Source: Candidatus Omnitrophota bacterium
Lineage (GTDB): Bacteria; Omnitrophota; Gorgyraeia; Gygaellales; Profunditerraquicolaceae
DNA: 64,000 nt
Reading direction: 5' to 3'
Assembly (NCBI GenBank): GCA_028717245.1
Contig: JAQUOD010000003.1
Location: 85,636 to 149,635, forward strand
In this document: positions 6,392 through 39,400 of the stretch, piece by piece
How positions within the stretch are numbered: the first letter of the stretch is position 1
Layout of the letters: each line of letters starts with the position of its first letter
Made by a program: the position numbers and the translations under genes
Notes under the pieces: generated by a model
The model's input: the letters and a program-made list of their open reading frames with translations, nothing else
Database searches by the model: none
What the model was told of the DNA's origin: nothing

Positions 6392-7203
6392 AGAATATTT
6401 ATCGGCCCATAGAAGCTGTGCTTGAAGATATCATTACCGAGAGCCCTACAATAAAGACATTTGTTTTAAGGCCCAAAGAGCCCTTTGAATTCAGGACCGG
6501 GCAATTTATCGAGTTGACTTTACCCGGGGTGGGCGAAGCGCCTTTTACGCCTTCATCTGACCCTAACCTGAAAGACAAGATAGATGTGACCATAATGAAT
6601 GTGGGTGAGGTCACCGCGCTTTTACATTCCAGCGCCAAAAATATATCCTTAGGCATACGCGGCCCCTACGGCAAGGGGTATCCCCTGGATAAATTTGAGG
6701 GTAAAGATATTTTAATCGTCGGCGGAGGAGTGGGGCTGGCGCCTTTACGTTCTTTATTATTCAGCCTATTTGCCGATATTGATAAATACAATAAAGTAGT
6801 ATTGCGTTACGGCGCGCGTACTGCCAATGACATCATATATAAGGAAGCCATTCCGCATTGGGCAAAAAAGAAGAAGGTTGACCTGGTTACGACAGTGGAT
6901 ATGGGTAGCCCCGAATGGAAAGGAAACGTCGGCTTAGTAACCACGATATTAAAGGACCTGCCCCTGGATTTGAAGAAAGCAATTTGCGTTGTCTGCGGCC
7001 CGCCCATCATGATGAAATTCGTCACTTTGAAATTACTGGACTTAGGGTTTAATCCTAAAGACATATACCTGTCTATGGAAAAGAATATGTCCTGTGGCCT
7101 GGGTAAATGCGGGCATTGCCGTATCGGCAGTTATTACATTTGTAAGGACGGCCCGGTGTTTACTTATGAGCAGTTAAAGGATTTGTACGATATATGGGAT
7201 TAG
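6388..7203 (+). CDS. Sulfhydrogenase gamma subunit / AsrB / PyrK-like FAD-NAD(P)-binding oxidoreductase with C-terminal 2Fe-2S
   Basis: RTGQF flavin motif, GGGVGLAP NAD(P) motif, C-terminal CGLGKCGHC...C cluster. Confidence 0.75.
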   Translation: MKNIYRPIEAVLEDIITESPTIKTFVLRPKEPFEFRTGQFIELTLPGVGEAPFTPSSDPNLKDKIDVTIMNVGEVTALLHSSAKNISLGIRGPYGKGYPLDKFEGKDILIVGGGVGLAPLRSLLFSLFADIDKYNKVVLRYGARTANDIIYKEAIPHWAKKKKVDLVTTVDMGSPEWKGNVGLVTTILKDLPLDLKKAICVVCGPPIMMKFVTLKLLDLGFNPKDIYLSMEKNMSCGLGKCGHCRIGSYYICKDGPVFTYEQLKDLYDIWD

Positions 7204-12657: not shown

Positions 12658-13179
12658 ATGGAGATTTATCTGCTTTTATTATTTATGATTGTGGCTGCCA
12701 TAGCTGCGATTGAAATCAAGGATATGCTCTCTAGCGTCATTGCCTTGAGCACGGTAGGCCTGGGCCTATGCCTGGCGTTTTTGATTTTAAAGGCGCCTAA
12801 CCTGGCTATTATGCAATTGGTTATTGAGCTCTTATGCCTGATCCTGCTTATCCGCGCCACCATCAACAAGGACCTGCCTCTGGTCAGGGATGGGCGCTGG
12901 CTCTTTAATACTATAGCTAGCGTATTATTTATTGCCGTATTTTTAATTTTTGCTTATTTTGCGCTCCTTGAGCTGCCTCGTTTCGGTGAGCCGATTATGC
13001 GCGTTTCGCAGGAATATATTGCCCGGGGGTTAGAAAAAACCGGTTCGGCTAATATTGTGACGGCAGTCGCCCTTAACTTCCGCAGTTACGATACGTTAGG
13101 CGAGATTGCCGTGCTGGCGACTGCAGTAATAGGCATACTTGCAGTGATGAGGAAGACAGGAAGGATACATGGAAAATAA
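12658..13179 (+). CDS. MrpB-like (DUF4040) membrane subunit
   Basis: small polytopic protein in Mrp module position. Confidence 0.55.
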   Translation: MEIYLLLLFMIVAAIAAIEIKDMLSSVIALSTVGLGLCLAFLILKAPNLAIMQLVIELLCLILLIRATINKDLPLVRDGRWLFNTIASVLFIAVFLIFAYFALLELPRFGEPIMRVSQEYIARGLEKTGSANIVTAVALNFRSYDTLGEIAVLATAVIGILAVMRKTGRIHGK

Positions 13180-28394: not shown

Positions 28395-28466
28395 GCCGAG
28401 GTAGCTCAGTGGTAGAGCGCGGCCCTGAAAAGGCCGGCGTGGGGGGTCCGATTCCCTCCCTCGGCA
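28395..28466 (+). tRNA. tRNA-Phe (anticodon GAA)
   Basis: Acceptor gccgagg/cctcggc, D-arm tagctcagtggtagagc, anticodon stem cggcc/ggccg with loop ctGAAaa, T-arm ggggg-tccgatt-ccctc; integrase immediately downstream. Confidence 0.75.
28453..28466 (+). repeat. attL core: 14-bp direct repeat TCCCTCCCTCGGCA (3' end of tRNA-Phe)
   Basis: identical 14-mer recurs at 39339-39352. Confidence 0.65.
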
Positions 28467-28499
28467 TTTAAATTTATAAGCATCTCGTAACTATATTAC

Positions 28500-28528
28500 T
28501 TGACAAGTATTTACAAAAATGCTACTAT
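28500..28528 (+). promoter_or_regulatory. Sigma70-type promoter for integrase (TTGACA-17-TACTAT)
   Basis: TTGACA 28500-28505, TACTAT 28523-28528. Confidence 0.5.
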
Positions 28529-28537
28529 TTCCAATAG

Positions 28538-28560
28538 GTGCCAGTGCCCAAATGGTGCCC
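28538..28560 (-). promoter_or_regulatory. GGCAC(A) triple direct-repeat operator-like site in int leader
   Basis: ggtgcc agtgccc aaatggtgccca = revcomp tGGGCACcatttGGGCACtGGCACc, between -10 and int start. Confidence 0.45.
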
Positions 28561-28587
28561 ATAGAAACATGAAAAAGTGAGGAAATT

Positions 28588-29613
28588 GTGGCAACTCTCC
28601 GTCGGAGAAACGAATCATACTTTGTTGACTACCGGATTAACGGTAGGCGCTTCCGTAAAAAAGTAGGTCCTTCCAAAAGAATAGCCGAGCTTGCCCTAAA
28701 AGATATAGAAGTTAAAATAGCTAAGGGTGAATTAGGTTTTTCACCAAAAGACAATTCTCTAGAGAAGCTATTTGAAGAATATCTTAAATACTCCAAGATA
28801 AACCACGCTCCGAATACTTACGAAAGATACAGGGGGATTCTTGATAACTTCAAGTCTTTCCTTGCTACTCGCCCCTATGTAAATAAGATTTCTCATTTAG
28901 ATCCTAAGTTATTTGAAGATTATAAGCATTTCCGTAAAGAGGGGAAAGCTGAAGATAAAACAGTTAATATAGAGCTTCAGATGCTCCGGGGTATGTTTAA
29001 TTTGGCACGGAAGTGGGGTTATTCTCAAAATAATCCCACAGAAGGCGTAACTTTCTTTAGAATTACCAAAACCCAGGAGCCAAGATTTCTCTCAAAAGAA
29101 GAATGCGAGAAGTTGCTAAATAATTGTGGAGAAGAGTTATATCCTATATTCTTTACTTTTCTTAACACTGGCATGAGAAGAGGTGAGTTGCTTAATCTTG
29201 AATGGAAAGATATAGATTTTAGCAGGAAGAGACTACAAATAAGAGCTAAAGAGGATTGGGAGCCTAAAACCTCAGAACGGTATATTCCTATGAACGATAG
29301 CTTGATAAAGGTACTAAAGAAGCATAAGGAAAAGAGTAGAGGCAGTTTAGTATTTACTGATAATAAAGGCGAGAAAATTCATAAAAACGAAATTAGGAAG
29401 GAACTTATTCGGATCACAAAGAAAAGCGCTTTTCCCGATGTAACAAAATTGCATAGTCTCCGGCATACTTTTGCAAGCCATTTGGTTATGAGCGGAGTAG
29501 ATTTGCCCACAGTAAAAAAACTAATGGGGCACTCAGACATAGAGACAACTATGATTTATTCTCACTTAGCGGATGAACACGTAGATAGGGCAGTAGAAAA
29601 ACTGGAGTTTTAG
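28588..29613 (+). CDS. int: Tyrosine-type site-specific recombinase (phage integrase family)
   Basis: C-terminal catalytic HSLRHTFASHLV...GHSDIETTMIYSHL (R..HxxR..Y) motifs; GTG start. Confidence 0.9.
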   Translation: MATLRRRNESYFVDYRINGRRFRKKVGPSKRIAELALKDIEVKIAKGELGFSPKDNSLEKLFEEYLKYSKINHAPNTYERYRGILDNFKSFLATRPYVNKISHLDPKLFEDYKHFRKEGKAEDKTVNIELQMLRGMFNLARKWGYSQNNPTEGVTFFRITKTQEPRFLSKEECEKLLNNCGEELYPIFFTFLNTGMRRGELLNLEWKDIDFSRKRLQIRAKEDWEPKTSERYIPMNDSLIKVLKKHKEKSRGSLVFTDNKGEKIHKNEIRKELIRITKKSAFPDVTKLHSLRHTFASHLVMSGVDLPTVKKLMGHSDIETTMIYSHLADEHVDRAVEKLEF

Positions 29614-29630
29614 TAGAGTGAGCTCTGAGA

Positions 29631-30425
29631 ATGAATAATAACTATATGCAAAAAAGTCAAAAAAAGACAAAACCAAATGTGAGGGATGAGCTCTCGAGGC
29701 GGGACACCTTACCCAGAGACTTTTTTGTTTTGTTTAATTTCTTTTCTGATCCAACCAGAGATATTTTATCGAAAATATTCTATAAGGCAATGAAGGTCGT
29801 TTATTTTAAGTTCAAAAGGAAAAAGGATATTTGGGAAGCAAAATTGATACGCAAAAATAAACCCTTGAGAGATTTTTATCCTCTCAGCAAAACAGATATT
29901 TCAAATTCCATTTATCTAGTAGATCATTATTTATCAAATCTTTATATTATTCCACCAGAGTGCGATCCTTTATCAAAATTTGGTCATTTTCCTTATGATG
30001 ATGCTATCAAGTTTTATGAGGAATATGTAGAAGGTAGTGTTAAAGATATTTATGGTAGAGAGATTGTTCTTGATGAAAACGGCCTAAATTCATTATTTGA
30101 TCATGATCCAGATCTTAATCCGAAGAACTATAGCGAGTCTCGAGGAAAACGACTTCCCTGGATAATACCAACACTTAGAAATTCTAAAGGAATCTATGAA
30201 TTTACCGAGCGATCCTGGACAACTTATTATTATATTAGCGCATTAAATGTGCCATATAAAGACAAAGCAACGGGAGAAGTATCAAAAGTTATGCATTACT
30301 TCTTTATTGTTATTAGAAAAGAGGCAGGGAAGCCACTAACTCTTATTACTGCATATCATTTTGATAAAGAATTAATGTTTTTGAAATTCTTAGAACCAGC
30401 ACACCCATTTATATATATGCCATAA
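29631..30425 (+). CDS. Hypothetical protein, co-transcribed with integrase
   Basis: 264-aa ORF 18 nt after int stop; no recognisable motif. Confidence 0.45.
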   Translation: MNNNYMQKSQKKTKPNVRDELSRRDTLPRDFFVLFNFFSDPTRDILSKIFYKAMKVVYFKFKRKKDIWEAKLIRKNKPLRDFYPLSKTDISNSIYLVDHYLSNLYIIPPECDPLSKFGHFPYDDAIKFYEEYVEGSVKDIYGREIVLDENGLNSLFDHDPDLNPKNYSESRGKRLPWIIPTLRNSKGIYEFTERSWTTYYYISALNVPYKDKATGEVSKVMHYFFIVIRKEAGKPLTLITAYHFDKELMFLKFLEPAHPFIYMP

Positions 30426-30616
30426 ATAAAGCTTGCAAATCTAAGATAAATGTTGTATGCTTATATCAGTTGAAGATTGCGGTGTAGGTTATCTGTTGTT
30501 TCTACTGGCGGGAATGACAGTCAAGCCTTGCCGCATAACACCAGCCTAAAAATACCAACCAAAAGTTGGTATTTTTTGTTTTATAGAGAGAAAAACAGTT
30601 CAGTTATTAAAAATTA

Positions 30617-30633
30617 GGCACATTTTGGGCACA
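30617..30633 (+). promoter_or_regulatory. GGCACA-TTTT-GGGCACA direct-repeat operator-like site
   Basis: aGGCACAttttGGGCACAg upstream of ORF 30708. Confidence 0.45.
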
Positions 30634-30707
30634 GAAAGACAGGTGATATTCATAACTTATTGAAAAGTAATAGATAAGAGTCGATTGATGTAGAACGAGG
30701 TGTTCTA

Positions 30708-31469
30708 ATGGATTGTTGGTTAAATTTAGGGATCACCGGAGGGTGTTGCTGGCCTACTGAGGACAAAAAGATTTTATTTGGCGGGCATGAATTTCTTCTA
30801 AAACCTGCGACTAGGGAAACAGAACAGTCTATTCATATTAACATTAGTAAGGAAAAAATGTCTCGTATTGATGCGATGACTCTTGTTAACAGGTTTTTAA
30901 GTATTATTTCATGGTGTGATGGTGGGAATGGAGGTATGGATATTATATATGATATCGGTGTGTCTAATGTCGCCCCTATTGCTATACCGATGAGAAGGAG
31001 AATGCTAGGTTCCTCAATAGATTTTCCATTTTACCGGGATATAGAAAAGAATCATAAAGCGTCTTTAGCGCTTGCCCTTTACAGAGAAGGCTTAGTAACG
31101 GATTCTGTTCCTTTGTCTTTCTTGAGCTTCTTTAAGATTATAAATATCTTTTATAATGACAAAACTACAAGAGTAAATAAACAGAAGCCTCAGAATGAAT
31201 TGATCGCAAGCCTAGGAAGTTTACTTCAGCATATAAAGTGTGACCTTGCCACGAAAAGAATAGATGAGCTCAAAAAATCAGTAAATGACATCCCGAAGTA
31301 TTTATATGAACGCCGGTGTGCAATCGCTCATGCATTTGTAGATCCAACAATTGATCCGGATAATGTGGCTGAATCAAGGGATTTATCTCAAGATACATGG
31401 ATTATAAGGGCGATAGCAGATTATCTAATAGAGAAAAAACTCAATGTTTCAAAATCAATATTGGGGTAG
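30708..31469 (+). CDS. Hypothetical protein with C-terminal HEPN-like Rx4-6H motif (candidate RNase/Abi-like)
   Basis: ERRCAIAHAF (R-x4-AH) near C-terminus in predicted helical domain. Confidence 0.5.
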   Translation: MDCWLNLGITGGCCWPTEDKKILFGGHEFLLKPATRETEQSIHINISKEKMSRIDAMTLVNRFLSIISWCDGGNGGMDIIYDIGVSNVAPIAIPMRRRMLGSSIDFPFYRDIEKNHKASLALALYREGLVTDSVPLSFLSFFKIINIFYNDKTTRVNKQKPQNELIASLGSLLQHIKCDLATKRIDELKKSVNDIPKYLYERRCAIAHAFVDPTIDPDNVAESRDLSQDTWIIRAIADYLIEKKLNVSKSILG

Positions 31470-31512
31470 TAAGCACATTAAAAGATAGAGGAGCATTTAA
31501 CTTGAACCAATT

Positions 31513-31530
31513 GGGCACAAGTTAGGCACA
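31513..31530 (+). promoter_or_regulatory. GGGCACA-N5-GGCACA operator-like site
   Basis: ttGGGCACAagttaGGCACAaat upstream of ORF 31637. Confidence 0.4.
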
Positions 31531-31636
31531 AATTTAATCATGGTCAATCCTATCTGCTTGGATTATAACAAGTAGTAGTTATTAGTATTAGATCAGTATA
31601 TTCTAAACTAATCTTGATTGTTACAAGGAAAACAAG

Positions 31637-33199
31637 ATGCCGAATGCTATAGAAGGTAAATATTGCATTTTTAATTACTCTGAATTCCCACAGCTTAAAG
31701 ATAGGGCTTTTCAGTTATTCCAGTATTTTGAGAATAAATACCCAAAGATTCTACAGCTCGTTGATCTTCCAATGCGTGAGAGGGTTAATATCGTTATGAA
31801 AACATTACCCTTAGGGCCACCAGCTGGGAAGACTGGCCATAGTGATATCTATTTGGATCCGAACCAGCTTGATCCTAAGGATTTAGGAGTCTTAGTCCAT
31901 GAGGGAACTCATGTGGCACAAGATTTTCAAGATGATAACTTTGAAAATATTGATAATAAATTATGGCTTATAGAAGGAATGGCTAATCATGTGCGATTGT
32001 TGTTGGGATGGGATGGTCCGAATCAACCCAAATTCGAACCAAGCAAAATAAAAATAAATACTAGCTTGAAAGAGCAAAGAGACTATGATGTGTGGGCTGA
32101 ATTTTTTAAATGGTTAGCAACAAAATATTCTAAAGGAAACTTGCTTGTTGATTTTACAAATGCGTTGAAAAATAGCGAAACAGATGAAGCTTTCCTCAAA
32201 AGAGAATTTGGTAAGTCTAGTGGACAACTCTGGGGAGAATTTGAAGGTCGAGTACTTTTTGAACAATTCAAGGTTAAAAGAGAATTATGGATAGAATGCC
32301 TCTCCGGTAAAGACCGTAATTCTATATTCAATCAGATTTTTGACATGGTTTGGAATGCTGCCGTTTTTAGAGTAATTAACGAGGCGCGCAAGATAACTGC
32401 GGAAAATGAAGAAGGTCAGAAGGAAATCAATGGGATGTTACATCACTTTATAGATGAGTGTTTCTTCGATAGTCAATTTCTTGCTATTCGCCGGTTAACA
32501 GATCCAGCTTATGAGCTACGTGATGCCGAGAGAGGGATTTTTTCTCTATTTGCATTATTAAATGATATGAGGAAAAATATAGCGTTATTCACTAGGGAGA
32601 ATTTTTTTGCAGCAGAAGGTCTCGAATATGATTACGAGGCTATTGAGAAACGAGAGCAAGAGTTTATCGCTGAACAAGTAAAAAATGGACAACGGGTTAT
32701 TTGGGGGCCGCGAGACTTAGATAGTTGGCCGATAAAATTACGTCATGAAGCAATTGATGCGTTATCTGGAGTAAGCGCAGAGCAACGCAAGCCTTCTGAT
32801 GTTATCCAAGAAAAAGTCTTAGATTGTTTAATTAAGATACTTAAAGACGTATCGACAGACATTAACCTATACGTGAATAAATACATAGCGCATCTCGCTA
32901 CGCCTCAGAGTCGGGAGCATTATAAGGCTGATGAAGTATCGATTACCTTAGGTCATTTGTGGAATGCATATAAAGTAATATGTCAGGTTGCTAATTTTGT
33001 CGATTCATATATGCTTACGGGAGCGAGTCACAGTTTTTTACCAGTTCCACAATTTAATAATTTTGAATTTATTGAGAAGTCCTTGGTTTCTTATTCAAAT
33101 ATCGAGGTTTTAAGCAAGGCATGGGATGATTTTTCTAAGGAAACAAGTTCTTGGGGTTCTTGGGGTCTGAAAGAGCTCCGTGAACAAAGTGGGCTTTAG
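31637..33199 (+). CDS. Multidomain protein: N-terminal HExxHxxQ zinc-metallopeptidase-like domain (BSP/basic-secretory-protein-like) + ~320-aa C-terminal domain of unknown function
   Basis: HEGTHVAQD motif at ~aa 88-96; rest unmatched. Confidence 0.5.
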   Translation: MPNAIEGKYCIFNYSEFPQLKDRAFQLFQYFENKYPKILQLVDLPMRERVNIVMKTLPLGPPAGKTGHSDIYLDPNQLDPKDLGVLVHEGTHVAQDFQDDNFENIDNKLWLIEGMANHVRLLLGWDGPNQPKFEPSKIKINTSLKEQRDYDVWAEFFKWLATKYSKGNLLVDFTNALKNSETDEAFLKREFGKSSGQLWGEFEGRVLFEQFKVKRELWIECLSGKDRNSIFNQIFDMVWNAAVFRVINEARKITAENEEGQKEINGMLHHFIDECFFDSQFLAIRRLTDPAYELRDAERGIFSLFALLNDMRKNIALFTRENFFAAEGLEYDYEAIEKREQEFIAEQVKNGQRVIWGPRDLDSWPIKLRHEAIDALSGVSAEQRKPSDVIQEKVLDCLIKILKDVSTDINLYVNKYIAHLATPQSREHYKADEVSITLGHLWNAYKVICQVANFVDSYMLTGASHSFLPVPQFNNFEFIEKSLVSYSNIEVLSKAWDDFSKETSSWGSWGLKELREQSGL

Positions 33200-33203
33200 A
33201 ATA

Positions 33204-33220
33204 GGCACATTTTGGGCACA
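33204..33220 (+). promoter_or_regulatory. GGCACA-TTTT-GGGCACA operator-like site
   Basis: taGGCACAttttGGGCACAaat upstream of ORF 33364. Confidence 0.45.
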
Positions 33221-33363
33221 AATAAACGGTAATCTTTATAACTTCTTGTATTTCATGAAACAAAGAAAAGTAGTTTAGAACAGATAGTTCTAACTCGCTC
33301 AAAAAGTGATATAATGATTCTATAATCACAATAGGTTGCAAATAAGATATGAGAAAAAAGTGA

Positions 33364-33678
33364 ATGGATGATAAAATGCAGCCAATAACTTGGGAAGATT
33401 TTGTATTACAAAGATACGAATGGACGAAAGTTTCTAGGTATGCAGTAACATTGGATGGTATCTTAGTGCGAGACGATAGTAAACCCGACAGTCCCTTTTA
33501 CATGTGCCTATGGGAAGGCTGGTGGGAGCCGCAGGGCTTGCCAGCAGTCGGCGTGAGCATAAGAGATGTACTTGAGGCAAAACCGGTCAGCACGGAAGAA
33601 GCGAGAGAGATAATACGCCGGGAAGCAAAACCTAGAGTAATGAGACCAGCGGAAAGAAAAAACTGGAGATTTGATTGA
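33364..33678 (+). CDS. Hypothetical protein (104 aa)
   Basis: ORF with Trp-rich segment WEGWWEPQG; no motif. Confidence 0.4.
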   Translation: MDDKMQPITWEDFVLQRYEWTKVSRYAVTLDGILVRDDSKPDSPFYMCLWEGWWEPQGLPAVGVSIRDVLEAKPVSTEEAREIIRREAKPRVMRPAERKNWRFD

Positions 33679-33772
33679 TACAAATTATTATTGATTGTTT
33701 TCTTTGTTGAGGTAATATTGAGTTAGACAATCTGGTCCAATAGCTTTACCTTAAAGAGGCTTTAAGGCCTCT

Positions 33773-33851
33773 AACAGTGACGTAAGGTAAGCTGCATTAC
33801 TCCCCGAAAGGGGAGGGGGAAATGCAGTCTTATCGGATTTACGTCACTGTT
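33773..33851 (+). other. 79-nt three-tier hairpin: 13-bp perfect stem (aacagtgacgtaa/ttacgtcactgtt), 8-bp inner stem, 6-bp stem with GAAA tetraloop; T-tract 15 nt downstream
   Basis: perfect inverted repeats; ctccccgaaaggggag GNRA hairpin at centre. Confidence 0.55.
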
Positions 33852-33911
33852 GCCGGTAGGAATATGCGCCCCCTTTTTTGTTAAAGTGGGTATATATAAA
33901 GGAGGGATAAG

Positions 33912-34445
33912 ATGAATATTTTAGAGCAAATTATGATAGGATTCATAGGAAGGCCAATCTTAACTCTTATTAAATGGTTAAGATGGTATTTCTTTCTTGG
34001 TGGGATAATGTTCAATACGGTTGAGATATATGATCCAGCTACTAAAAGCATAGTTTCAAGCCAGTTTACTATAATCCCTTTTCTTTTGGGTTTAGTTTTA
34101 TTAGCTATTGGATTGACAGTTAAGAGATATGATGAAAATGTTGCTACGCTTCACGGTATCTCTATGTTGGAAGGATTGCAGGGAAAGATAAGAAAAGCCT
34201 ATCAAAATGGTAAGGAAGCAGATGCACAGGAGAGGGTGGACAAGGATTACCAAGAAACGCTCCAATTGTTAGCGGAGGGGCGGCAAGTACTCAACAAAGC
34301 GAGATCGGAGCGGTTGAGAGACGACAGCAGTCCGTTCAATCCGAGATTAAGCGAGAACGAAGCCTCTGGGGTTATTAAGAAGTCAGTAGAAGCTATTGAG
34401 CAAGAAGAGAAGCAAAATAAATCTAAACAAGATAACAAAAAGTAA
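33912..34445 (+). CDS. Hypothetical membrane protein (2 TM + charged coiled-coil C-terminus)
   Basis: two hydrophobic helices, then E/K/Q-rich tail. Confidence 0.4.
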   Translation: MNILEQIMIGFIGRPILTLIKWLRWYFFLGGIMFNTVEIYDPATKSIVSSQFTIIPFLLGLVLLAIGLTVKRYDENVATLHGISMLEGLQGKIRKAYQNGKEADAQERVDKDYQETLQLLAEGRQVLNKARSERLRDDSSPFNPRLSENEASGVIKKSVEAIEQEEKQNKSKQDNKK

Positions 34446-34623
34446 TATTATATTTTCTTAGTCTTAATCGGTCCCCCCCCCTAAGAGCTTCGCAATCTAT
34501 CCAACCAAATAGTGCTTTTCTTTCGTTCCTTTGCGTCTCTACCTGTTTTGTGCTTAAATTTTGCCATTAAGATGGTTTTTTTTCTTTATACTCTATTTAA
34601 AGTAGTAATTTGGTATATGCGAT

Positions 34624-35640
34624 TTGTGGTATAATTATATAAAAAGCGAGGAAGACGTGGCTTTAAAGACTAAGAAGAAACTATTTGAAAAATTAAACAA
34701 TGTAGAAGAAGCGCTCTGTTTATCAAAAATATCTCAACCCGAGTTTTTTGAGGCATATTTAGAACTTGAAACAAATCTCCACAGTATTTTTAAAAAAATA
34801 GGGGAAGTTTACGAAAAAAATAAAATTAGTCATCAAAATAATCCTGAATACATTAAGCTAAAACAACATAAAAAGAATTTAATAAGTAATTTCTACAAAA
34901 AATGGGGAATATCTCCTTCATCTTTTAAAGTAGTTAATAGTAAAATAGAGATAGACGAATCTATTAAAAACATAGACGGGATTGCGGTGCATATTGATAC
35001 TCCTCTTCCTGAAATAATCGGGAAGATCGTGCCTGCTAAGGAAAAATATTTAACTTTGTTGATAGACACCTTCGAAGAAAAAGAAATAATTTTAGCCGAA
35101 GTTTCCCGGATCTATGATTGGATAAATGAGATGCGAACAGAAACGGGAGTAAAGCTTCCTAAAGACAAATGTCATGTAAAGGTATTGGTTAGGAGATACA
35201 AAGTATTTAATCTAAGAAACCAAAGACCCCCAATGAAATTCAAGGAAATTGTTTTTCATATGATAACGAAAGGATTTTATAAAGATGAAACATTAGAAAA
35301 AGCAGAAAACTTAGCAAAAAAAGATTATGCAGCGGCTTATAGGAAGATTCACGGTATTCCATATAAAGAGCATAATAAATCGCAACTTAAGAAATCAAAT
35401 TTCAAAGGTTGCGCGTCTTGTGAAGCAAGACAAAAATGTAAAGAGCCTTGTTCCCAAGCAGAGTATTATTTATCTTTAGATGAAAAGAAGCAATCAGAAC
35501 TGCTTTTTAATAGGGGCGTAACTGATATTATTCATCCCGAAGATCTTAAAGAGGCGAAACAGAAAAAAAGAGCGATGATGTCAGAAGATGAAGAAGAGTG
35601 GAGACAAGAAGAGATTGAAAGGGGTATATATAAAAAGTAG
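34624..35640 (+). CDS. Hypothetical Lys-rich protein with C-terminal Cys cluster (CASCEARQKCKEPC)
   Basis: 338-aa ORF; start could be in-frame GTG at 34657. Confidence 0.4.
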   Translation: MWYNYIKSEEDVALKTKKKLFEKLNNVEEALCLSKISQPEFFEAYLELETNLHSIFKKIGEVYEKNKISHQNNPEYIKLKQHKKNLISNFYKKWGISPSSFKVVNSKIEIDESIKNIDGIAVHIDTPLPEIIGKIVPAKEKYLTLLIDTFEEKEIILAEVSRIYDWINEMRTETGVKLPKDKCHVKVLVRRYKVFNLRNQRPPMKFKEIVFHMITKGFYKDETLEKAENLAKKDYAAAYRKIHGIPYKEHNKSQLKKSNFKGCASCEARQKCKEPCSQAEYYLSLDEKKQSELLFNRGVTDIIHPEDLKEAKQKKRAMMSEDEEEWRQEEIERGIYKK

Positions 35641-35655
35641 TGTTTAGGGAAAATT

Positions 35656-35693
35656 AAATCAGGGTAACCCGATTTTTCACTTTTACAAGGGTG
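35656..35693 (+). repeat. 38-bp direct repeat copy 1 (aaatcagggtaacccgatttttcacttttacaagggtg)
   Basis: identical to 35738-35775. Confidence 0.8.
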
Positions 35694-35723
35694 AGGGCTT
35701 AAAAACTCTCACCCTTTTTGTTT
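35688..35723 (+). terminator. Rho-independent terminator (agggtgag/ctcaccct, T-tract) overlapping repeat copy 1
   Basis: 8-bp perfect stem + tttttgttt. Confidence 0.65.
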
Positions 35724-35737
35724 ATCCAGGCTTTTAA

Positions 35738-35775
35738 AAATCAGGGTAACCCGATTTTTCACTTTTACAAGGGTG
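35738..35775 (+). repeat. 38-bp direct repeat copy 2, 20 nt upstream of SpoVG-like gene
   Basis: identical to copy 1; contains near-palindrome atcagggtaacccgat. Confidence 0.8.
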
Positions 35776-35795
35776 GAAGGACAAATTTAAAGAAG

Positions 35796-36119
35796 ATGAG
35801 CGAAATAGTGGTCTCCGAAGTTCAAATTATTCCAGTTAAACCCAGAGAGGGCCTCGTTGCTTTTGCTTCTTGTGTTATCAACGGCCATTTTTATCTTGGT
35901 GGATTAGCGATTTATACCTGTCTTTCTTCCTCAGAAGGTTTCCGAGTGACCTATCCTACCAAAGTTTTAAATAACGGCACTAAATTAGATCTAGTTTATC
36001 CAATAACACGCGAAGTTGGGTTAACAGTTCAGAAGAAAATTGTCGAAAAATACGTAAAACTCATAGAAGATTTAACGAAAGGGAATGGTAAAAATGAACA
36101 AGAGCCGAGATTTACTTAA
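35796..36119 (+). CDS. SpoVG-like nucleic-acid-binding protein
   Basis: VSEVQIIPVKPREGLVAFASCVINGHFYLGGLAIY...GFRVTYPTK...VYPITREVGLTVQKKIVEKY matches SpoVG fold pattern; ATG 35796 preferred over ORF-track 35718. Confidence 0.5.
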   Translation: MSEIVVSEVQIIPVKPREGLVAFASCVINGHFYLGGLAIYTCLSSSEGFRVTYPTKVLNNGTKLDLVYPITREVGLTVQKKIVEKYVKLIEDLTKGNGKNEQEPRFT

Positions 36120-36399
36120 ACGTTTCGCCTCTTCAAAATCAAAATATTTTGATTTGCCTGATGGCGAAGAAACCCAAGTAAAATTTCTTTATGCAGAAGA
36201 AGTCCCTAATCATTTTGATGGCGGAGAAACAGTTTGTATTCGCTATCACTTTGACGTTGATGGTAAAGAAATGCTTTGGGATAGAACTTCGAGAGAGTTA
36301 GCTAAACAAATAGCTTCGATTTCTGAAGGAGAAACAATTTTAATAAAAAGAACCGGTGAAAAAAGTAAAACTAAATATTTTATCAGGAAAGTTGAATAA
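36085..36399 (+). CDS. Hypothetical protein (104 aa)
   Basis: ORF only. Confidence 0.35.
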   Translation: MVKMNKSRDLLKRFASSKSKYFDLPDGEETQVKFLYAEEVPNHFDGGETVCIRYHFDVDGKEMLWDRTSRELAKQIASISEGETILIKRTGEKSKTKYFIRKVE

Positions 36400-36616
36400 T
36401 GACATCAACAAGGCCCCTGTCAATTTTTCATCGCTCTGACCTACTTACTCTGTCAACGATGACCTATACAAGCATGCAGGGGCTTTGTTTTAGATTTAGA
36501 TATTGCTTTAGAGATATGCTTGGTAGGAATAAAGAGTAAAGCTTAGGCCAATAGAACGTAATTAAGTTATTTATTTCTATATATAGATAATAGTCATTTA
36601 AGAGGAGGGGAAGGAT

Positions 36617-36868
36617 ATGGGATTAACCGGAGTTAACAAATTATGTGCTCAGTGTATAAATAAATGTAAGCAGTGGAGGGAAATCAAGGTAATCAGCTGT
36701 CCACTTTTTATAAGCACGCAAAGAAAAAAACCTGATCTGAATGGCAGAAATTTTCAAGGCATACCCAACAAGCACAGGGGAATGGCGGAAATGCCATTCT
36801 TTGAGGCGTTTTCTGAAGAAAGGAATAAAGATATGGCTTCTGAGTTTATGGATACCCTGCAAGCGTGA
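36617..36868 (+). CDS. Hypothetical small protein with CxxC..C zinc-ribbon-like N-terminus
   Basis: CAQCINKCKQW; GGAGGGG RBS. Confidence 0.35.
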   Translation: MGLTGVNKLCAQCINKCKQWREIKVISCPLFISTQRKKPDLNGRNFQGIPNKHRGMAEMPFFEAFSEERNKDMASEFMDTLQA

Positions 36869-36912
36869 GATATTAGTACAAACTATACTAAACTATACCA
36901 CATTGAACGGAA

Positions 36913-37299
36913 ATGGATAAAAAGACGAAACTGTCAAACAGGCAATTATTAACAGTCAGTCATATCATTACTTCTCCTACCCTTGAAGAAGCCAGAAGGA
37001 AAGCTAAGGTAAGTAAGGGAACTTTATACGCTTGGTTAAAAGAAGAAGCCTTTAAGGTTGAGTTGAAGCGTCAGAGAGATGAAGTTATTAAAGAAGCGCT
37101 CTCTCGGTTAAAGAGTGCTATATCCCAGGCTGTAGAAAAATTGGTTAAGTTACTTGATAATGAAAAGCCAGATTTGAGGCGCCTAGTTTGTAGGGATATA
37201 CTGAATTATGCTTTAAAGAGCATTGAACTAGAAGATATCGAGACAAGGATAGCCAATCTGGAAGAAAAAACAAAATTAGCACGGAAATTTCACAGATGA
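36913..37299 (+). CDS. HTH DNA-binding protein (terminase-small-subunit-like or regulator)
   Basis: TLEEARRKAKVSKGTLYAWLK helix-turn-helix. Confidence 0.45.
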   Translation: MDKKTKLSNRQLLTVSHIITSPTLEEARRKAKVSKGTLYAWLKEEAFKVELKRQRDEVIKEALSRLKSAISQAVEKLVKLLDNEKPDLRRLVCRDILNYALKSIELEDIETRIANLEEKTKLARKFHR

Positions 37300-37553
37300 G
37301 AATTGAGAAGAGATTAGAACGGCTCGAGAAAGATATAGGGGATAAATTTCAGCCAGACCCCGGAGAAATTATTATCAATGGCAAAAGGTTAGACCAAATG
37401 ACAACGGAGGAGTTGATAGCAGATGTCAATAAGAAGGTTAAGGCCATGGAGGATACAGAGTATGGAAGGAAAATAATGAAACTATCCATAGACGATAAAA
37501 TAAAACGTCTAAACCAATGGGCTATTACCGGCGTTTGTCCACCATTAGATTAG
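37296..37553 (+). CDS. Hypothetical coiled-coil protein (85 aa)
   Basis: ORF overlapping upstream stop (ATGA). Confidence 0.35.
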   Translation: MRIEKRLERLEKDIGDKFQPDPGEIIINGKRLDQMTTEELIADVNKKVKAMEDTEYGRKIMKLSIDDKIKRLNQWAITGVCPPLD

Positions 37554-37581
37554 CCAAATTTATGGGGAGAATATGAAAAAA

Positions 37582-37609
37582 GGCATTTTTTGGGCATTTT
37601 TTGGGCACA
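37582..37609 (+). promoter_or_regulatory. Triple GGCA/GGGCA/GGGCACA direct-repeat operator-like site upstream of xis
   Basis: aGGCAttttttGGGCAttttttGGGCACAaaat. Confidence 0.45.
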
Positions 37610-37688
37610 AAATTAAGGTTATCTTTTGTTATGTATTGCAAACAAAGAAGTTAGTAAAAGTTAGTGCAGAATAAGGAAATCTAACCTT

Positions 37689-37895
37689 GTGGAAAAGTTA
37701 CTTACGATAAGCCAATTAAGTGAGTTATTACAAGTTAGTCCAAAGACAATTTATCAATGGACGCACATAGGTTTTGTTCCTCACTATAAATTCCCTAAAG
37801 GTGTTCGTTTTAGGATAATAGAAATAGAAAATTGGTTAAAAAGCAGGAAAAAAAGAGGGAGAGCTTCGTATGTCTTGGTTGACAAAGGACCATAA
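37689..37895 (+). CDS. xis: AlpA/excisionase-family HTH protein (Xis)
   Basis: LLTISQLSELLQVSPKTIYQW...GVRFRIIEIENWL pattern typical of phage excisionase/AlpA. Confidence 0.7.
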   Translation: MEKLLTISQLSELLQVSPKTIYQWTHIGFVPHYKFPKGVRFRIIEIENWLKSRKKRGRASYVLVDKGP

Positions 37896-38775
37896 TTATG
37901 TTATTTTAAGGCAGCATAAGGAGATAACTTTGAAAGGTACAATTCAAGAAAAAACAAAGATTGCATACCTTGGTCCGGAAGAAACCTTTAGCCATCAGGT
38001 TGTAGATGAGCTCTTTGGAGATTCGGCAATATACCTACCTCAAGATAATTTTCCCTCAGTTATAAAACTTATATGCGACGGCAAGGCAGACAGAGGTGTT
38101 ATTCCATTCTTTAACCCCTATGAAGAACATATACGCGAATGTCAAGAAGAGCTATTCAAAACCGATTTAATAGCAACAAATGTTCATAAGATTGATATTG
38201 ATTTATACTTAGCAACTAACAGATTACGTTTGGATGAGGTAAAATCAATACGATCTAATGAGCATGTGTTTAAACAATGTGATGTTTGGTTAAGTCAACA
38301 TTTACCAGAAATACGTTTTGATGGAAGAGGTAGCACCGCGGGAGCAGCCGAGGATATAAAAAAAATACCTTATGCCGCGGCAATCTGCTCATTTAAAGCT
38401 GCCATAAAAAACGATCTGGATATTTTAGCAAAAAGCATACAAAATACAAAGAATTTCACATTATTTTTTGTTATACAAAAAGCAGATACCATAGAAGAAT
38501 GGGAAGACTATTCATTTCTTTGTTTCAAGATAAAAGATGCTAAAGAACAAAAAGCAATATTGGATATTCTTCAGAAACATCGTTTCAGAAGTTCGCAAAA
38601 GTGGGATTTTCCTCATCCGACGGGGGAATACATACTTTTCTTCTTAGAGTTTTTTGGAGCTTATCTTGATGCAAATGTTGTTTCTTTTATCGCAGAGGTT
38701 AAAAAATACTTTCCAGACTGTAAACTGATAGGGACTTTTAAGGAGAGTATTACGAGAAGAATGGTTGAAATTTAG
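37870..38775 (+). CDS. Divergent prephenate-dehydratase (PDT)-like domain protein
   Basis: IAYLGPEETFSH, SNEHVFKQC, STAGAAE, N-FTLF (cf. PDT IAYLGPEGTFS, SHPQALAQC, STAAAA, N-TRF); Arg of TRF replaced by Leu. Confidence 0.45.
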   Translation: MSWLTKDHNYVILRQHKEITLKGTIQEKTKIAYLGPEETFSHQVVDELFGDSAIYLPQDNFPSVIKLICDGKADRGVIPFFNPYEEHIRECQEELFKTDLIATNVHKIDIDLYLATNRLRLDEVKSIRSNEHVFKQCDVWLSQHLPEIRFDGRGSTAGAAEDIKKIPYAAAICSFKAAIKNDLDILAKSIQNTKNFTLFFVIQKADTIEEWEDYSFLCFKIKDAKEQKAILDILQKHRFRSSQKWDFPHPTGEYILFFLEFFGAYLDANVVSFIAEVKKYFPDCKLIGTFKESITRRMVEI

Positions 38776-38776
38776 T

Positions 38777-38806
38777 TTGACAAAGTGAGAAAAGATACTA
38801 TATAAT
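38777..38806 (+). promoter_or_regulatory. Sigma70-type promoter (TTGACA ... TATATAAT)
   Basis: TTGACA 38777-38782; tactatataat 38797-38806. Confidence 0.45.
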
Positions 38807-38831
38807 AGAGTACATCCTATCCTATCACAAT

Positions 38832-39095
38832 ATGACTAAAAACGAAGAAATGAAACCATTTCTGAACTTGACAACTGTCCAGATTAACGGTTGGGCTATG
38901 GCTTTTTGCCCTGAATTTGAGGTATCTGCTTGTGGTCCTGATCGCGATGCAGTGGTCGAGGATTTATTTGATATGGTCAAAAGGAACGCAAGCATATTCT
39001 TGCAAGAAGAGTCAACTTCTCCGGCTCTAAGAAAATGGTCGAAAGAAGTTGTTGATCATCAGGATCGTATTGCAGATTTATTCAAAACAGCTTAA
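38832..39095 (+). CDS. HicB-like (UPF0150) antitoxin-fold protein, solitary
   Basis: INGWAMAFCPEFEVSACGPDRDAVVEDLFDMVK resembles HicB N-domain; no HicA partner seen. Confidence 0.35.
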   Translation: MTKNEEMKPFLNLTTVQINGWAMAFCPEFEVSACGPDRDAVVEDLFDMVKRNASIFLQEESTSPALRKWSKEVVDHQDRIADLFKTA

Positions 39096-39187
39096 TAGTA
39101 GTAGTCATTTGTCACGGTTTTTATAAAAACAGAAGTGGTTAATTACTTCTGTTTTTTTATTTGTAATTTTATAAAATAAGATACTTC

Positions 39188-39205
39188 TGTGCCCAAAATG
39201 TGCCC
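39188..39205 (-). promoter_or_regulatory. GGGCACA-TTTT-GGGCACA operator-like site (reverse orientation) near island right end
   Basis: tgtgcccaaaatgtgccca. Confidence 0.4.
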
Positions 39206-39338
39206 ATCCAAGTGAAAAACATCGGGAAACAAAGGGTAACATCAGGCAACATCCAGACTCGCTAATCCATTGACAATAAAAGCATTGGATATTTAATACA
39301 TTAAAACACAGAGGGTTAGGGAAATAAGCACGATGGAC

Positions 39339-39352
39339 TCCCTCCCTCGGCA
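39339..39352 (+). repeat. attR core: 14-bp direct repeat TCCCTCCCTCGGCA
   Basis: exact copy of tRNA-Phe 3' end (28453-28466). Confidence 0.65.
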
Positions 39353-39358
39353 CCATAT

Positions 39359-39400
39359 AAAAACGAGAGGTTTCAGTAAGCCTCTCGTTTTGCTTTATTT
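39359..39400. terminator. Bidirectional intrinsic terminator (aaacgagagg/cctctcgttt 10-bp stem)
   Basis: perfect 10-bp stem, A-tract upstream and T-tract downstream. Confidence 0.6.

Follow-up and report, generated by a model that had tools for sequence, protein, structure and literature searches.

Integration of the island at tRNA-Phe

The DNA analyzed here is a 64-kb stretch of a Candidatus Omnitrophota chromosome (contig JAQUOD010000003.1, positions 85,636 to 149,635; in the following called the window), with the host assigned by homologs of the adjacent gene pssA. It carries a compact island of 10.9 kb, which begins in the 3′ end of a tRNA-Phe(GAA) gene and contains genes for a tyrosine integrase (int) and an excisionase (xis) together with further open reading frames (ORFs). 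The features of the island are listed in Table 1. There are 15-17 island ORFs, every one located on the plus strand, intact, and tightly packed.

Table 1 Features of the island and its integration site (positions in the window)
Feature	Position	Strand	Evidence or remark
tRNA-Phe(GAA), integration target	28395-28466	+	ARAGORN; Rfam tRNA model, 63.5 bits
attL core, final 14 nucleotides (nt) of tRNA-Phe, TCCCTCCCTCGGCA	28453-28466	+	Exact repeat of 39339-39352
int promoter, TTGACA, 17 nt, TG-n-TACTAT	28500-28528	+	Promoter scan, 10/12 positions
Putative right-of-core arm repeats GGTGCCA, GTGCCCA, aatg, GTGCCCA	28537-28561	+	Between int -10 and int ribosome-binding site
Tyrosine integrase, 341 amino acids (aa)	28588-29613	+	PF00589 1.9e-34, PF13102 2.1e-11, phrog_1 3e-79
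264-aa ORF, slot 1	29631-30425	+	No recognisable domain
Inverted tandem copy of repeat, TAGGCACattttGGGCAC	30615-30632	+	75 nt 5′ of MauJ-like ORF
MauJ-family protein (PF17419), slot 1	30708-31469	+	Pfam 2e-17
Inverted tandem copy of repeat	31512-31529	+	107 nt 5′ of 520-aa ORF
520-aa fusion: HEGTH metallopeptidase-like (PF04450, ~1-207) and AbiU2-type HEPN-like (PF18734, ~208-518)	31637-33199	+	Pfam
Inverted tandem copy of repeat	33202-33219	+	144 nt 5′ of 104-aa ORF
104-aa ORF	33364-33678	+	46% identity to sister island L055
Long near-perfect hairpin, 80 nt, between 104-aa and 177-aa ORFs	33773-33852	+	RNA fold
177-aa ORF, hydrophobic N-terminus	33912-34445	+	L034, 58% identity; also L051, L115
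338-aa ORF (327 aa as deposited), phage-shared, possible regulator	34624-35640	+	Single non-self homolog
Terminator hairpin between exact 38-nt duplicates (35656-35693 and 35738-35775)	35687-35716	+	
SpoVG-like nucleic-acid-binding protein, core	35796-36119	+	Pfam SpoVG (PF04026) 1.4e-08
Single-stranded DNA-binding (SSB)-like OB-fold protein, 101 aa, core	36094-36399	+	
83-aa ORF, doubtful as gene	36617-36868	+	Partial match in L034
Small-terminase-like protein, phBC6A51 helix-turn-helix (HTH) type, 128 aa, core	36913-37299	+	phrog_2538 'terminase small subunit' 6.4e-08
85-aa conserved partner of small-terminase-like gene	37296-37553	+	Small ORF after homolog in L113 (42% identity), L115, L117
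Three inverted repeat units, 11 bp spacing	37582-37608	+	80 nt 5′ of xis
Excisionase (recombination directionality factor), HTH_17/MerR type, 68 aa	37689-37895	+	PF12728 1.5e-11; excisionase PHROGs
Divergent prephenate-dehydratase-like protein, PDT and ACT domains, slot 2	37870-38775	+	PF00800 9.4e-36; start overlaps xis end
87-aa ORF, slot 2	38832-39095	+	Own consensus promoter 38777-38806, terminator 39125-39156
Putative left-of-core arm repeats, GTGCCCAaaatGTGCCCA	39189-39206	+	150 nt (start to start) before attR core
attR core, copy of tRNA-Phe 3′ end, TCCCTCCCTCGGCA	39339-39352	+	Exact repeat; fur synteny resumes after attR
Terminator, 14-pair hairpin with flanking A and T runs	39360-39391		Directly after attR

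The tRNA-Phe(GAA) gene is the sole tRNA gene found by ARAGORN in the window, and an Rfam scan likewise matched this tRNA alone. For the exact repetition of its last 14 nt at the right end of the island, 0.02 matches are expected by chance (shuffled sequence, up to one mismatch). Read directly, the identity between attL and attR stretches to 17 nt with one mismatch (GAyTCCC...). As the island brings an identical 3′ end, the tRNA-Phe gene stays intact. From the att arms, the attP junction is predicted to read ...GATGGAC-TCCCTCCCTCGGCA-TTTAAATTT..., and the attB junction is predicted to consist of the tRNA-Phe end followed by CCATATAAAAACGAG. The GC content is 0.360 within 28467-39338 compared with 0.432 and 0.425 in the 10-kb flanks to the left and right, respectively, and among all 10.9-kb stretches of the window, the one with the lowest GC starts at 28501. 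Another match to the att core (13/14 nt; expectation ~0.02) was observed on the minus strand at 32524-32537 inside the 520-aa ORF, which is probably a coincidence.

An earlier interpretation from the DNA letters (in the following the sequence-only reading) had described the tRNA-Phe(GAA) gene, the recurring 14-nt tRNA end, an interior more AT-rich than the flanks, a strong terminator behind the repeat, and a promoter with a tyrosine integrase gene right after the tRNA. All of this was borne out by the tRNA and promoter scans, the repeat and GC statistics, and the domain matches.

Empty site and integration hotspot

Comparison with related genomes uncovered the site without the island. The gene order transporter, DUF3568, pssA, and tRNA-Phe is kept in at least seven related genomes. 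In the Omnitrophota metagenome-assembled genome (MAG) L011 (JBAZKC010000001.1), these genes are followed after 368 nt by fur, DUF5320, and a NifB-like gene. In the window, the same three genes come after attR, and fur lies 384 nt away from it. The tRNA-Phe of L011 is identical to that of the window, and the fur products share 84% aa identity. Because pssA, tRNA-Phe, and fur are joined in L011 without any insertion, the 14-nt repeat coincides exactly with the synteny breakpoint, as the sequence-only reading would lead one to expect. Beyond reasonable doubt, the region 28453-39352 is a mobile element integrated site-specifically at the tRNA-Phe 3′ end of a Candidatus Omnitrophota chromosome. Even as an ordinary integrated island, the element accounts for the block of low GC and for the loss of synteny at this place.

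Two sister islands, L030 and L031, reside at the same tRNA-Phe gene and encode integrases 86-88% identical to that of the window. The island in L030, whose contig reaches further than that of L031, lies beside pssA and carries a different cargo, while the one in L031 was found beside the upstream transporter and DUF3568 genes. In the closest genome, L001 (PssA 78% identical), the tRNA-Phe gene is followed by ~110 nt of the left end of a related island (6641-6760). This remnant holds the GTGCCCAAATTATGCCCA repeat and no int, with a cyclophilin gene coming next, and it looks like a deletion scar. In the Omnitrophota MAG L010 (10751-15280), the tRNA-Phe 3′ end occurs twice more downstream, at 12918 and 15267, and the first of these copies takes in ~40 nt from the 3′ half of the tRNA. 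Between the repeats lie two islets in tandem, 2.1-2.4 kb in size, which lack an integrase and contain methyltransferase, glycosyltransferase, and other genes. Since these islets are bounded by copies of its 3′ end, the tRNA-Phe gene is a repeated integration hotspot. Another small variable region downstream of tRNA-Phe was seen in the Omnitrophota genome L006 (9400-10167); it contains a 255-aa ORF, judged by eye to be possibly restriction-endonuclease-like.

Integrase and excisionase

The int gene starts 121 nt past the tRNA. Its product is composed of an N-terminal arm-binding-type segment, a SAM-like domain, and a catalytic domain in which all catalytic residues are present when read in the sequence (R197, K227, H289-x-x-R292, H315, and Y324). 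It thus has the R-K-HxxR-H-Y residues and the SAM-like core-binding domain of a tyrosine recombinase. The promoter layout TTGACA-17-TAnnAT also occurs 5′ of int in many sister islands. The excisionase is 50-74% identical in most sister islands and less so in a few. It had been called an 'AlpA-type excisionase' in the sequence-only reading: the excisionase assignment stands (HTH_17 1.5e-11, PHROGs), while 'AlpA-type' is loose wording, as the Phage_AlpA model did not match. Both int and xis are intact.

GTGCCCA repeats

The motif GGCACATTTTGGGCAC is made of two GTGCCCA units spaced 11 bp. With up to three mismatches it matches seven times in the window, all of them in the island, compared to 0.5 expected matches. 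On the attL side, a GTGCCCA-N4-GTGCCCA pair is present at 28544-28561, 77 nt past the attL core, with a third, degenerate unit at 28537. The inverted copies read TAGGCAC-N4-TGGGCAC and are located 75-144 nt 5′ of the MauJ-like, 520-aa, and 104-aa genes and of xis. The geometry is conserved in other islands: the attL-arm repeats lie 62-78 nt from the core in the window, L033, L034, L040, and L115 (73 nt in L115), and the attR-arm repeats 146-150 nt from the core in the window, L033, L034, and L040. Also, an inverted copy precedes xis in L034, L040, L046, and L115. Other loci have the variants GCGCCCA, GTGACCA, GTGACGA, or CTGCCCA at the same place, 3′ of the conserved TTGACA-17-TAnnAT.

Because of the fixed geometry on both arms and the arm-binding-type segment at the N-terminus of the integrase, we read the repeats as arm-type sites. 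They are probably integrase arm-type sites that double as operators for int, xis, and cargo genes. A reading of GGCAC-N6-GGGCA as sigma-54 promoter, with a fitting GG-to-GC spacing of 12, was rejected. The elements are genuine tandem repeats (three units at two of the sites), no gene for an enhancer-binding ATPase was found in the island, and the two terminal copies face away from genes, one of them into a terminator.

A family of compact islands

An integrase-based metagenome scan provided 80 related loci, followed by searches with the island proteins and by clustering of the ORFs of 18 islands. A recurrent gene order became visible. It starts with a tRNA gene (Phe, Ser, Tyr, or Leu) and int in the same orientation, continues with variable genes, a SpoVG-like gene, a ~100-aa gene, and small ORFs, and ends with a small-terminase-like gene in some members, xis, and again variable genes. 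Complete members with 14-24-nt repeats of the tRNA 3′ end are L033 (6.5 kb), L034 (10.5 kb), L040 (8.5 kb), and L046 (11.2 kb). In L115/L116, the right-hand core of the window island is found again in full, i.e., genes for a 293-aa protein, the SpoVG-like protein, a 101-aa protein, two small ORFs, the small-terminase-like protein, a 71-aa protein, and xis; here, xis is followed by a Fic-domain cargo gene. By its gene order and boundaries, the window island belongs to a family of compact one-direction islands of 6.5-11 kb at tRNA-Phe, Ser, Tyr, and Leu genes.

The slot after the SpoVG-like gene is occupied by an OB-fold protein, a DnaD/Rep-N-terminal-like winged-helix protein, or a protein of 412-416 aa. 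Two cargo slots, the first between int and the regulator-like gene 5′ of the SpoVG-like gene and the second between xis and attR, hold unrelated genes across the members, and the cargo of sister islands varies, including Fic, DNA methylase, restriction enzymes, DUF3800, UvrD with DUF5677, and reverse transcriptases. The 35 sister-island proteins scanned included no capsid, portal, or large terminase. The distant integrase-clade members L048 and L054 carry a primase-helicase, and primase-helicases of this kind are typical of P4- and PICI-type satellites (PICI, phage-inducible chromosomal island).

Two members deviate from the usual organization. In L046 (8587-19808), xis is present twice, and an internal pair of repeats (16247/16258) is oriented like the terminal arm repeats; this island may represent two elements integrated in tandem. 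In the related island L117 (1855-5193), xis and int are located at the right end; its cargo region carries a methylase-nuclease gene and two adjacent reverse-transcriptase (RVT_1) genes, which may form a defence system of the retron or DRT type.

Elements of this kind are known, while we found no description of this particular family in the literature, regarding its Omnitrophota host, its core of SpoVG-like, OB-fold, and small-terminase-like genes, and its arm-type repeats at cargo promoters. A preprint on lateral gene transfer in Omnitrophota deals with different, much larger elements.

Core genes and their relation to phages

The SpoVG-like gene is present in 12 of the 18 islands clustered. 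Searches for homologs of two core proteins yielded 53 and 62 sequences; the SSB-like OB-fold protein is 49-90% identical over its 53 homologs. The 338-aa ORF adjoins the SpoVG-like gene on the 5′ side, a slot which in most sister islands is filled by a protein of 220-340 aa. Weak similarity among these positional analogues makes it possible that the 338-aa protein is a regulator.

This protein has only one non-self homolog among 5.8 billion proteins. The homolog (50% aa identity) is encoded on the 4.4-kb phage contig L025, directly 5′ of a DUF5681 small-terminase-like gene, a gene for a large terminase of 586 aa (terminase PHROGs), and a DnaD-like gene. At the DNA level, window and L025 are 77% identical over 643 bp, comprising the 3′ part of the 338-aa gene and the terminator hairpin. 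The homology ends right past the hairpin, where the island has the exact 38-nt duplication, and the region 35656-35775 looks like a recombination junction between modules. The duplication also suggests that the SpoVG-like gene starts with ATG at 35796 rather than with TTG at 35718. Further genes of L025 have relatives in sister islands: its small terminase has a homolog in L052 (48%), and its 87-aa gene has one in L054. Relatives of the SpoVG-like protein with 40-48% identity are encoded on the IMG/VR phage contigs L110-L112, one of which bears an array of 13 tRNAs. Scans of IMG/VR for close relatives of the 338-aa, small-terminase-like, 520-aa, SpoVG-like, and OB-fold genes gave nothing, and a scan with the integrase returned only matches of at most 33% identity.

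Small-terminase-like genes of at least four unrelated families (phBC6A51 type, phrog_309, phrog_51, and DUF5681) occur in the island family, mostly just 5′ of xis. Homologs of the one in the window were found only in int/xis islands and never beside a large terminase (three contigs examined in detail), which is what one would expect of a satellite copy. The structural model of the protein (predicted local distance difference test, pLDDT, 88.7) has an HTH followed by a helical hairpin, and 'terminase small subunit' is the annotation of most of its named matches in BFVD; a PDB sequence search with this ORF was uninformative. Capsid, portal, large terminase, tail, and lysis genes were not recognized by Pfam or PHROGs for any island ORF. 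This agrees with the sequence-only reading, which had ruled out an intact prophage on the grounds that capsid, portal, and large-terminase genes were missing.

Cargo genes and further features

Slot 1, in the left half of the island, comprises the 264-aa, MauJ-like, 520-aa, 104-aa, and 177-aa ORFs, and the conserved core makes up the right half. The 264-aa ORF had no match in Pfam, PHROGs, PADLOC, or NCBIfam and no sister-island homolog. The neighboring MauJ-like ORF carries an RRCAIAH motif when read in the sequence (R-x4-H, HEPN-like). In the 520-aa fusion, PF18734 matched with 8.8e-07 and 29.0 bits (cut-off 26.8), and the R-x4-6-H motif is absent. An exhaustive HMMER search showed that its halves are usually separate proteins, with one other fusion among the best 150 matches listed. 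More than 1,000 representatives match this ORF, nearly all of those listed via the AbiU2-like half. Residues 1-207 share 79% identity with a standalone protein of 212 aa, and residues 208-518 fall into a large family of AbiU2-like proteins that stand alone and have ~320 aa. A PDB sequence search with the 520-aa ORF was uninformative.

After the 80-nt hairpin between the 104-aa and 177-aa ORFs come a G+C-rich stretch and a run of T. The region 33760-33890 folds with -54.5 kcal/mol (z = -4.65), and no Rfam family matched the hairpin, which could be a terminator, an origin, or a packaging/transfer site. In slot 2, the prephenate-dehydratase-like protein matches PDB 3mwb over the full length (2.5e-16). 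It has TLF in place of TRF and FPHP in place of ESRP, and it scores 98.9 bits against the NCBIfam PheA equivalog with a cut-off of 219. It may be a ligand sensor and not an enzyme. For the 87-aa ORF of this slot, Pfam, PHROGs, and NCBIfam contained no matching family. The about 17 ORFs of the sequence-only reading are in line with our count; its statement that nearly all of them were of unknown function was too strong, since seven ORFs besides int and xis have a domain or fold assignment.

Nature of the element

The sequence-only reading had left a choice between a mobile island, a prophage remnant, and a PICI-like element. An integrated island is supported, and the PICI-like option is favored by the recurring compact family and by a small-terminase-like gene without a large terminase. 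As the island combines packaging-recognition and DNA-handling genes of phage origin with the lack of virion genes, we consider the lifestyle of a phage satellite the most likely one. Overall it seems rather probable, with satellite status being deduced from the genes, that the island is a helper-dependent phage satellite carrying Abi/HEPN-type cargo (Abi, abortive infection).

Such a satellite would work as follows, where we infer excision, replication, packaging, helper dependence, and the identity of the repeat-binding protein. At integration, the integrase recombined a 14-17-bp core identical to the tRNA-Phe 3′ end, thereby rebuilding the tRNA and leaving attL and attR. The repeat copy on the attL side, between the int promoter and the int start, would allow autoregulation of int. 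Through the inverted repeats 5′ of xis and of three cargo genes, these genes would come under the control of the same DNA-binding protein. Excision directed by Xis would produce a circle, and this circle would be packaged by the large terminase and capsid of a helper phage, redirected by the small-terminase-like protein of the island. The HEPN/AbiU2-type cargo might protect the host or interfere with phages.

Several points weigh against a satellite of this kind. Neither an excised circle nor an attP junction nor a virion-packaged copy was observed, and a search of viral contigs for the exact attP junction found nothing. No primase, helicase, Rep, or replication initiator was matched in the island by Pfam, PHROGs, PADLOC, or NCBIfam. 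A divergently transcribed master repressor is absent, all island ORFs being on the plus strand without a divergent HTH gene. The phage contig L025 comprises only 4.4 kb. The small-terminase-like protein scores 1.2e-4 and 22.6 bits against PF13022, under the curated cut-off of 27.9, and the top PDB matches of its model in Foldseek are weak (phBC6A51 protein 2ao9, nine chains, E = 0.015; NV1 small terminase 7joq, E = 0.13). With such weak profile and fold scores, it could simply be an HTH regulator. Similarly, the protein that binds the repeats could be Xis or a different island protein instead of Int. A covariation between integrase residue 12 and the repeat variant (F/L with GCCCA; Q/Y/E with GACCA) is broken by L115, which has Y with GCCCA. 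Finally, PADLOC reported no significant defence-model match for any cargo ORF.

Four other explanations were weighed. A temperate phage at tRNA-Phe might have lost its structural and lysis genes and no longer move. The phage relatives of the 338-aa, SpoVG-like, and small-terminase-like genes and the lack of virion genes would fit such a decayed prophage, and the ~110 nt of a related island kept in L001 indicate that elements of this type do decay. However, the compact gene order is found at many independent loci and different tRNAs together with intact att, int, xis, and arm-site geometry, and 40-kb prophages decaying at random would not all end up with such an order. All ORFs are intact, tightly packed, and on one strand, the identity of the OB-fold protein across its homologs suggests selection, and small terminases were captured recurrently without large-terminase or capsid genes. 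Decay to a remnant is therefore unlikely. We regard it as similarly improbable that the island is an integrative mobilizable element, which would excise by its own Int/Xis and, via a mimic oriT, be transferred with the relaxase and mating pore supplied by a conjugative element in the same cell, with the SSB-like protein serving single-stranded DNA transfer. Its small size, int and xis, the lack of replication or virion genes, and the conserved OB-fold SSB-like protein would be compatible with this, and the hairpin at 33773-33852 might serve for nicking or transfer. An oriT might escape recognition when judged from sequence alone. Yet neither the island nor the sister-island proteins scanned showed a relaxase, a coupling protein, or a type IV secretion domain, and the recognisable non-cargo links all lead to phages, i.e., to small-terminase-like genes of at least four families and to DNA shared with L025.

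There is also little reason to prefer a fixed defence or variable island, for which the tRNA-Phe 3′ end would be a recombination hotspot and int and xis mere relics. The integrase-less islets bounded by tRNA-Phe 3′-end copies in L010, the other variable DNA after the tRNA in L006, and the Abi/HEPN-type cargo are consistent with it, but the catalytic residues of Int and its promoter/operator layout are kept, xis is intact, and the att cores are identical. Moreover, the integrases at the same site are 86-88% identical in hosts whose PssA proteins are ~61% identical, which suggests horizontal spread, though rates may differ. Least credible by far is an assembly artefact, i.e., a misjoined low-GC segment with a coincidental 14-nt repeat. 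The contig comes from a MAG (locus tags PHC54_...), a type of assembly in which chimeric contigs can occur; but the repeat is the exact tRNA 3′ end at the exact synteny breakpoint, the independent assemblies L030 and L031 show the same tRNA-int junction, sister islands have the same boundaries, and an assembly from an independent read set, L026 (run SRR22315508), reproduces 1,837 nt of the island exactly.

Going beyond the phage satellite as such, a more far-reaching proposal is put forward tentatively and is rather doubtful. The islands might form a new, Omnitrophota-specific satellite family, in which a core of SpoVG-like protein, OB-fold SSB-like protein, and captured small terminase replaces the primase/Rep and capsid-remodelling modules known from PICIs, P4, and PLEs, and in which the arm repeats are operators of xis and of each slot-1 cargo gene. 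If this were true, the expression of Abi/HEPN cargo would be coupled directly to whether the element is recombined or to infection by the helper.

Comparison with known systems

The island is most similar to PICI-type islands and to the small environmental satellites known as virion-encapsidated integrative mobile elements (VEIMEs). The latter were defined as concatemers packaged in virus particles, with small-terminase genes closest to those of co-occurring phages (PMC9618062). VEIMEs and minimalist PICI-type islands resemble the island in their size of ~5-12 kb, a tyrosine integrase, an excisionase/AlpA-type HTH protein, sometimes a small-terminase homolog, the lack of capsid genes, and a cargo of Abi, restriction-modification, or other defence-type genes (PMC9618062). 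The proximity of their small terminase to that of phages has its counterpart in L025 and L052. In contrast to the island, which is known from its genes, VEIMEs were seen packaged in particles, and the primase-helicases and plasmid-type Rep proteins of VEIMEs are absent from it. A SpoVG-like and OB-fold core was not found in described satellite modules, and a literature search for SpoVG together with 'phage satellite' was empty.

PICIs and the Staphylococcus aureus pathogenicity islands (SaPIs) are ~10-15 kb in size, encode int and xis, redirect helper packaging by a satellite small terminase, lack virion genes, and carry accessory defence genes at their ends. The island shares the size, site-specific int/xis, a putative small-terminase-like gene, the absence of virion genes, and accessory defence-type genes. 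It differs by having all genes on one strand and no divergent master repressor, recognisable primase-replication gene, origin iterons, or capsid-size-redirection genes, and because of the missing repressor and primase it does not qualify formally as a PICI. We know of no PICIs described from Omnitrophota. P4-like satellites differ from the island by their alpha primase-helicase, sid, psu, and delta, for which neither PHROGs nor Pfam gave matches here. Mobilizable genomic islands of the SXT/R391 type are driven by these conjugative elements. They are similar in being small islands at tRNA or gene ends with only int and a directionality factor and often with defence genes as cargo; unlike for them, no link to an oriT or relaxase was found in the island, whose affinities are all to phages.

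The Omnitrophota have not been cultured; many of these bacteria are very small and may live as predators or depend on a host. To our knowledge, their mobile elements and their interactions with phages have hardly been explored. The family anchored by the window island comprises dozens of int-related loci with core genes, clear boundaries, and a defined attachment-site architecture. It offers a route to defence cargo in Omnitrophota and, with the L025 lineage, a candidate satellite-helper pair.

The recombination modules of lambda, P4, and KplE1 consist of a heterobivalent integrase, a short core, and arm repeats on both arms, and the arm sites overlap the int promoter, by which int is autoregulated. 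The island appears to have a similar module with a tRNA 3′-end core, tandem repeats on both arms at fixed distances, and an overlap with the int control region. Unlike in these modules, its repeat is also present in inverted orientation 5′ of xis and three cargo genes, an arrangement conserved across the family. The family thereby represents an example of putative integrase arm sites recurring at cargo promoters.

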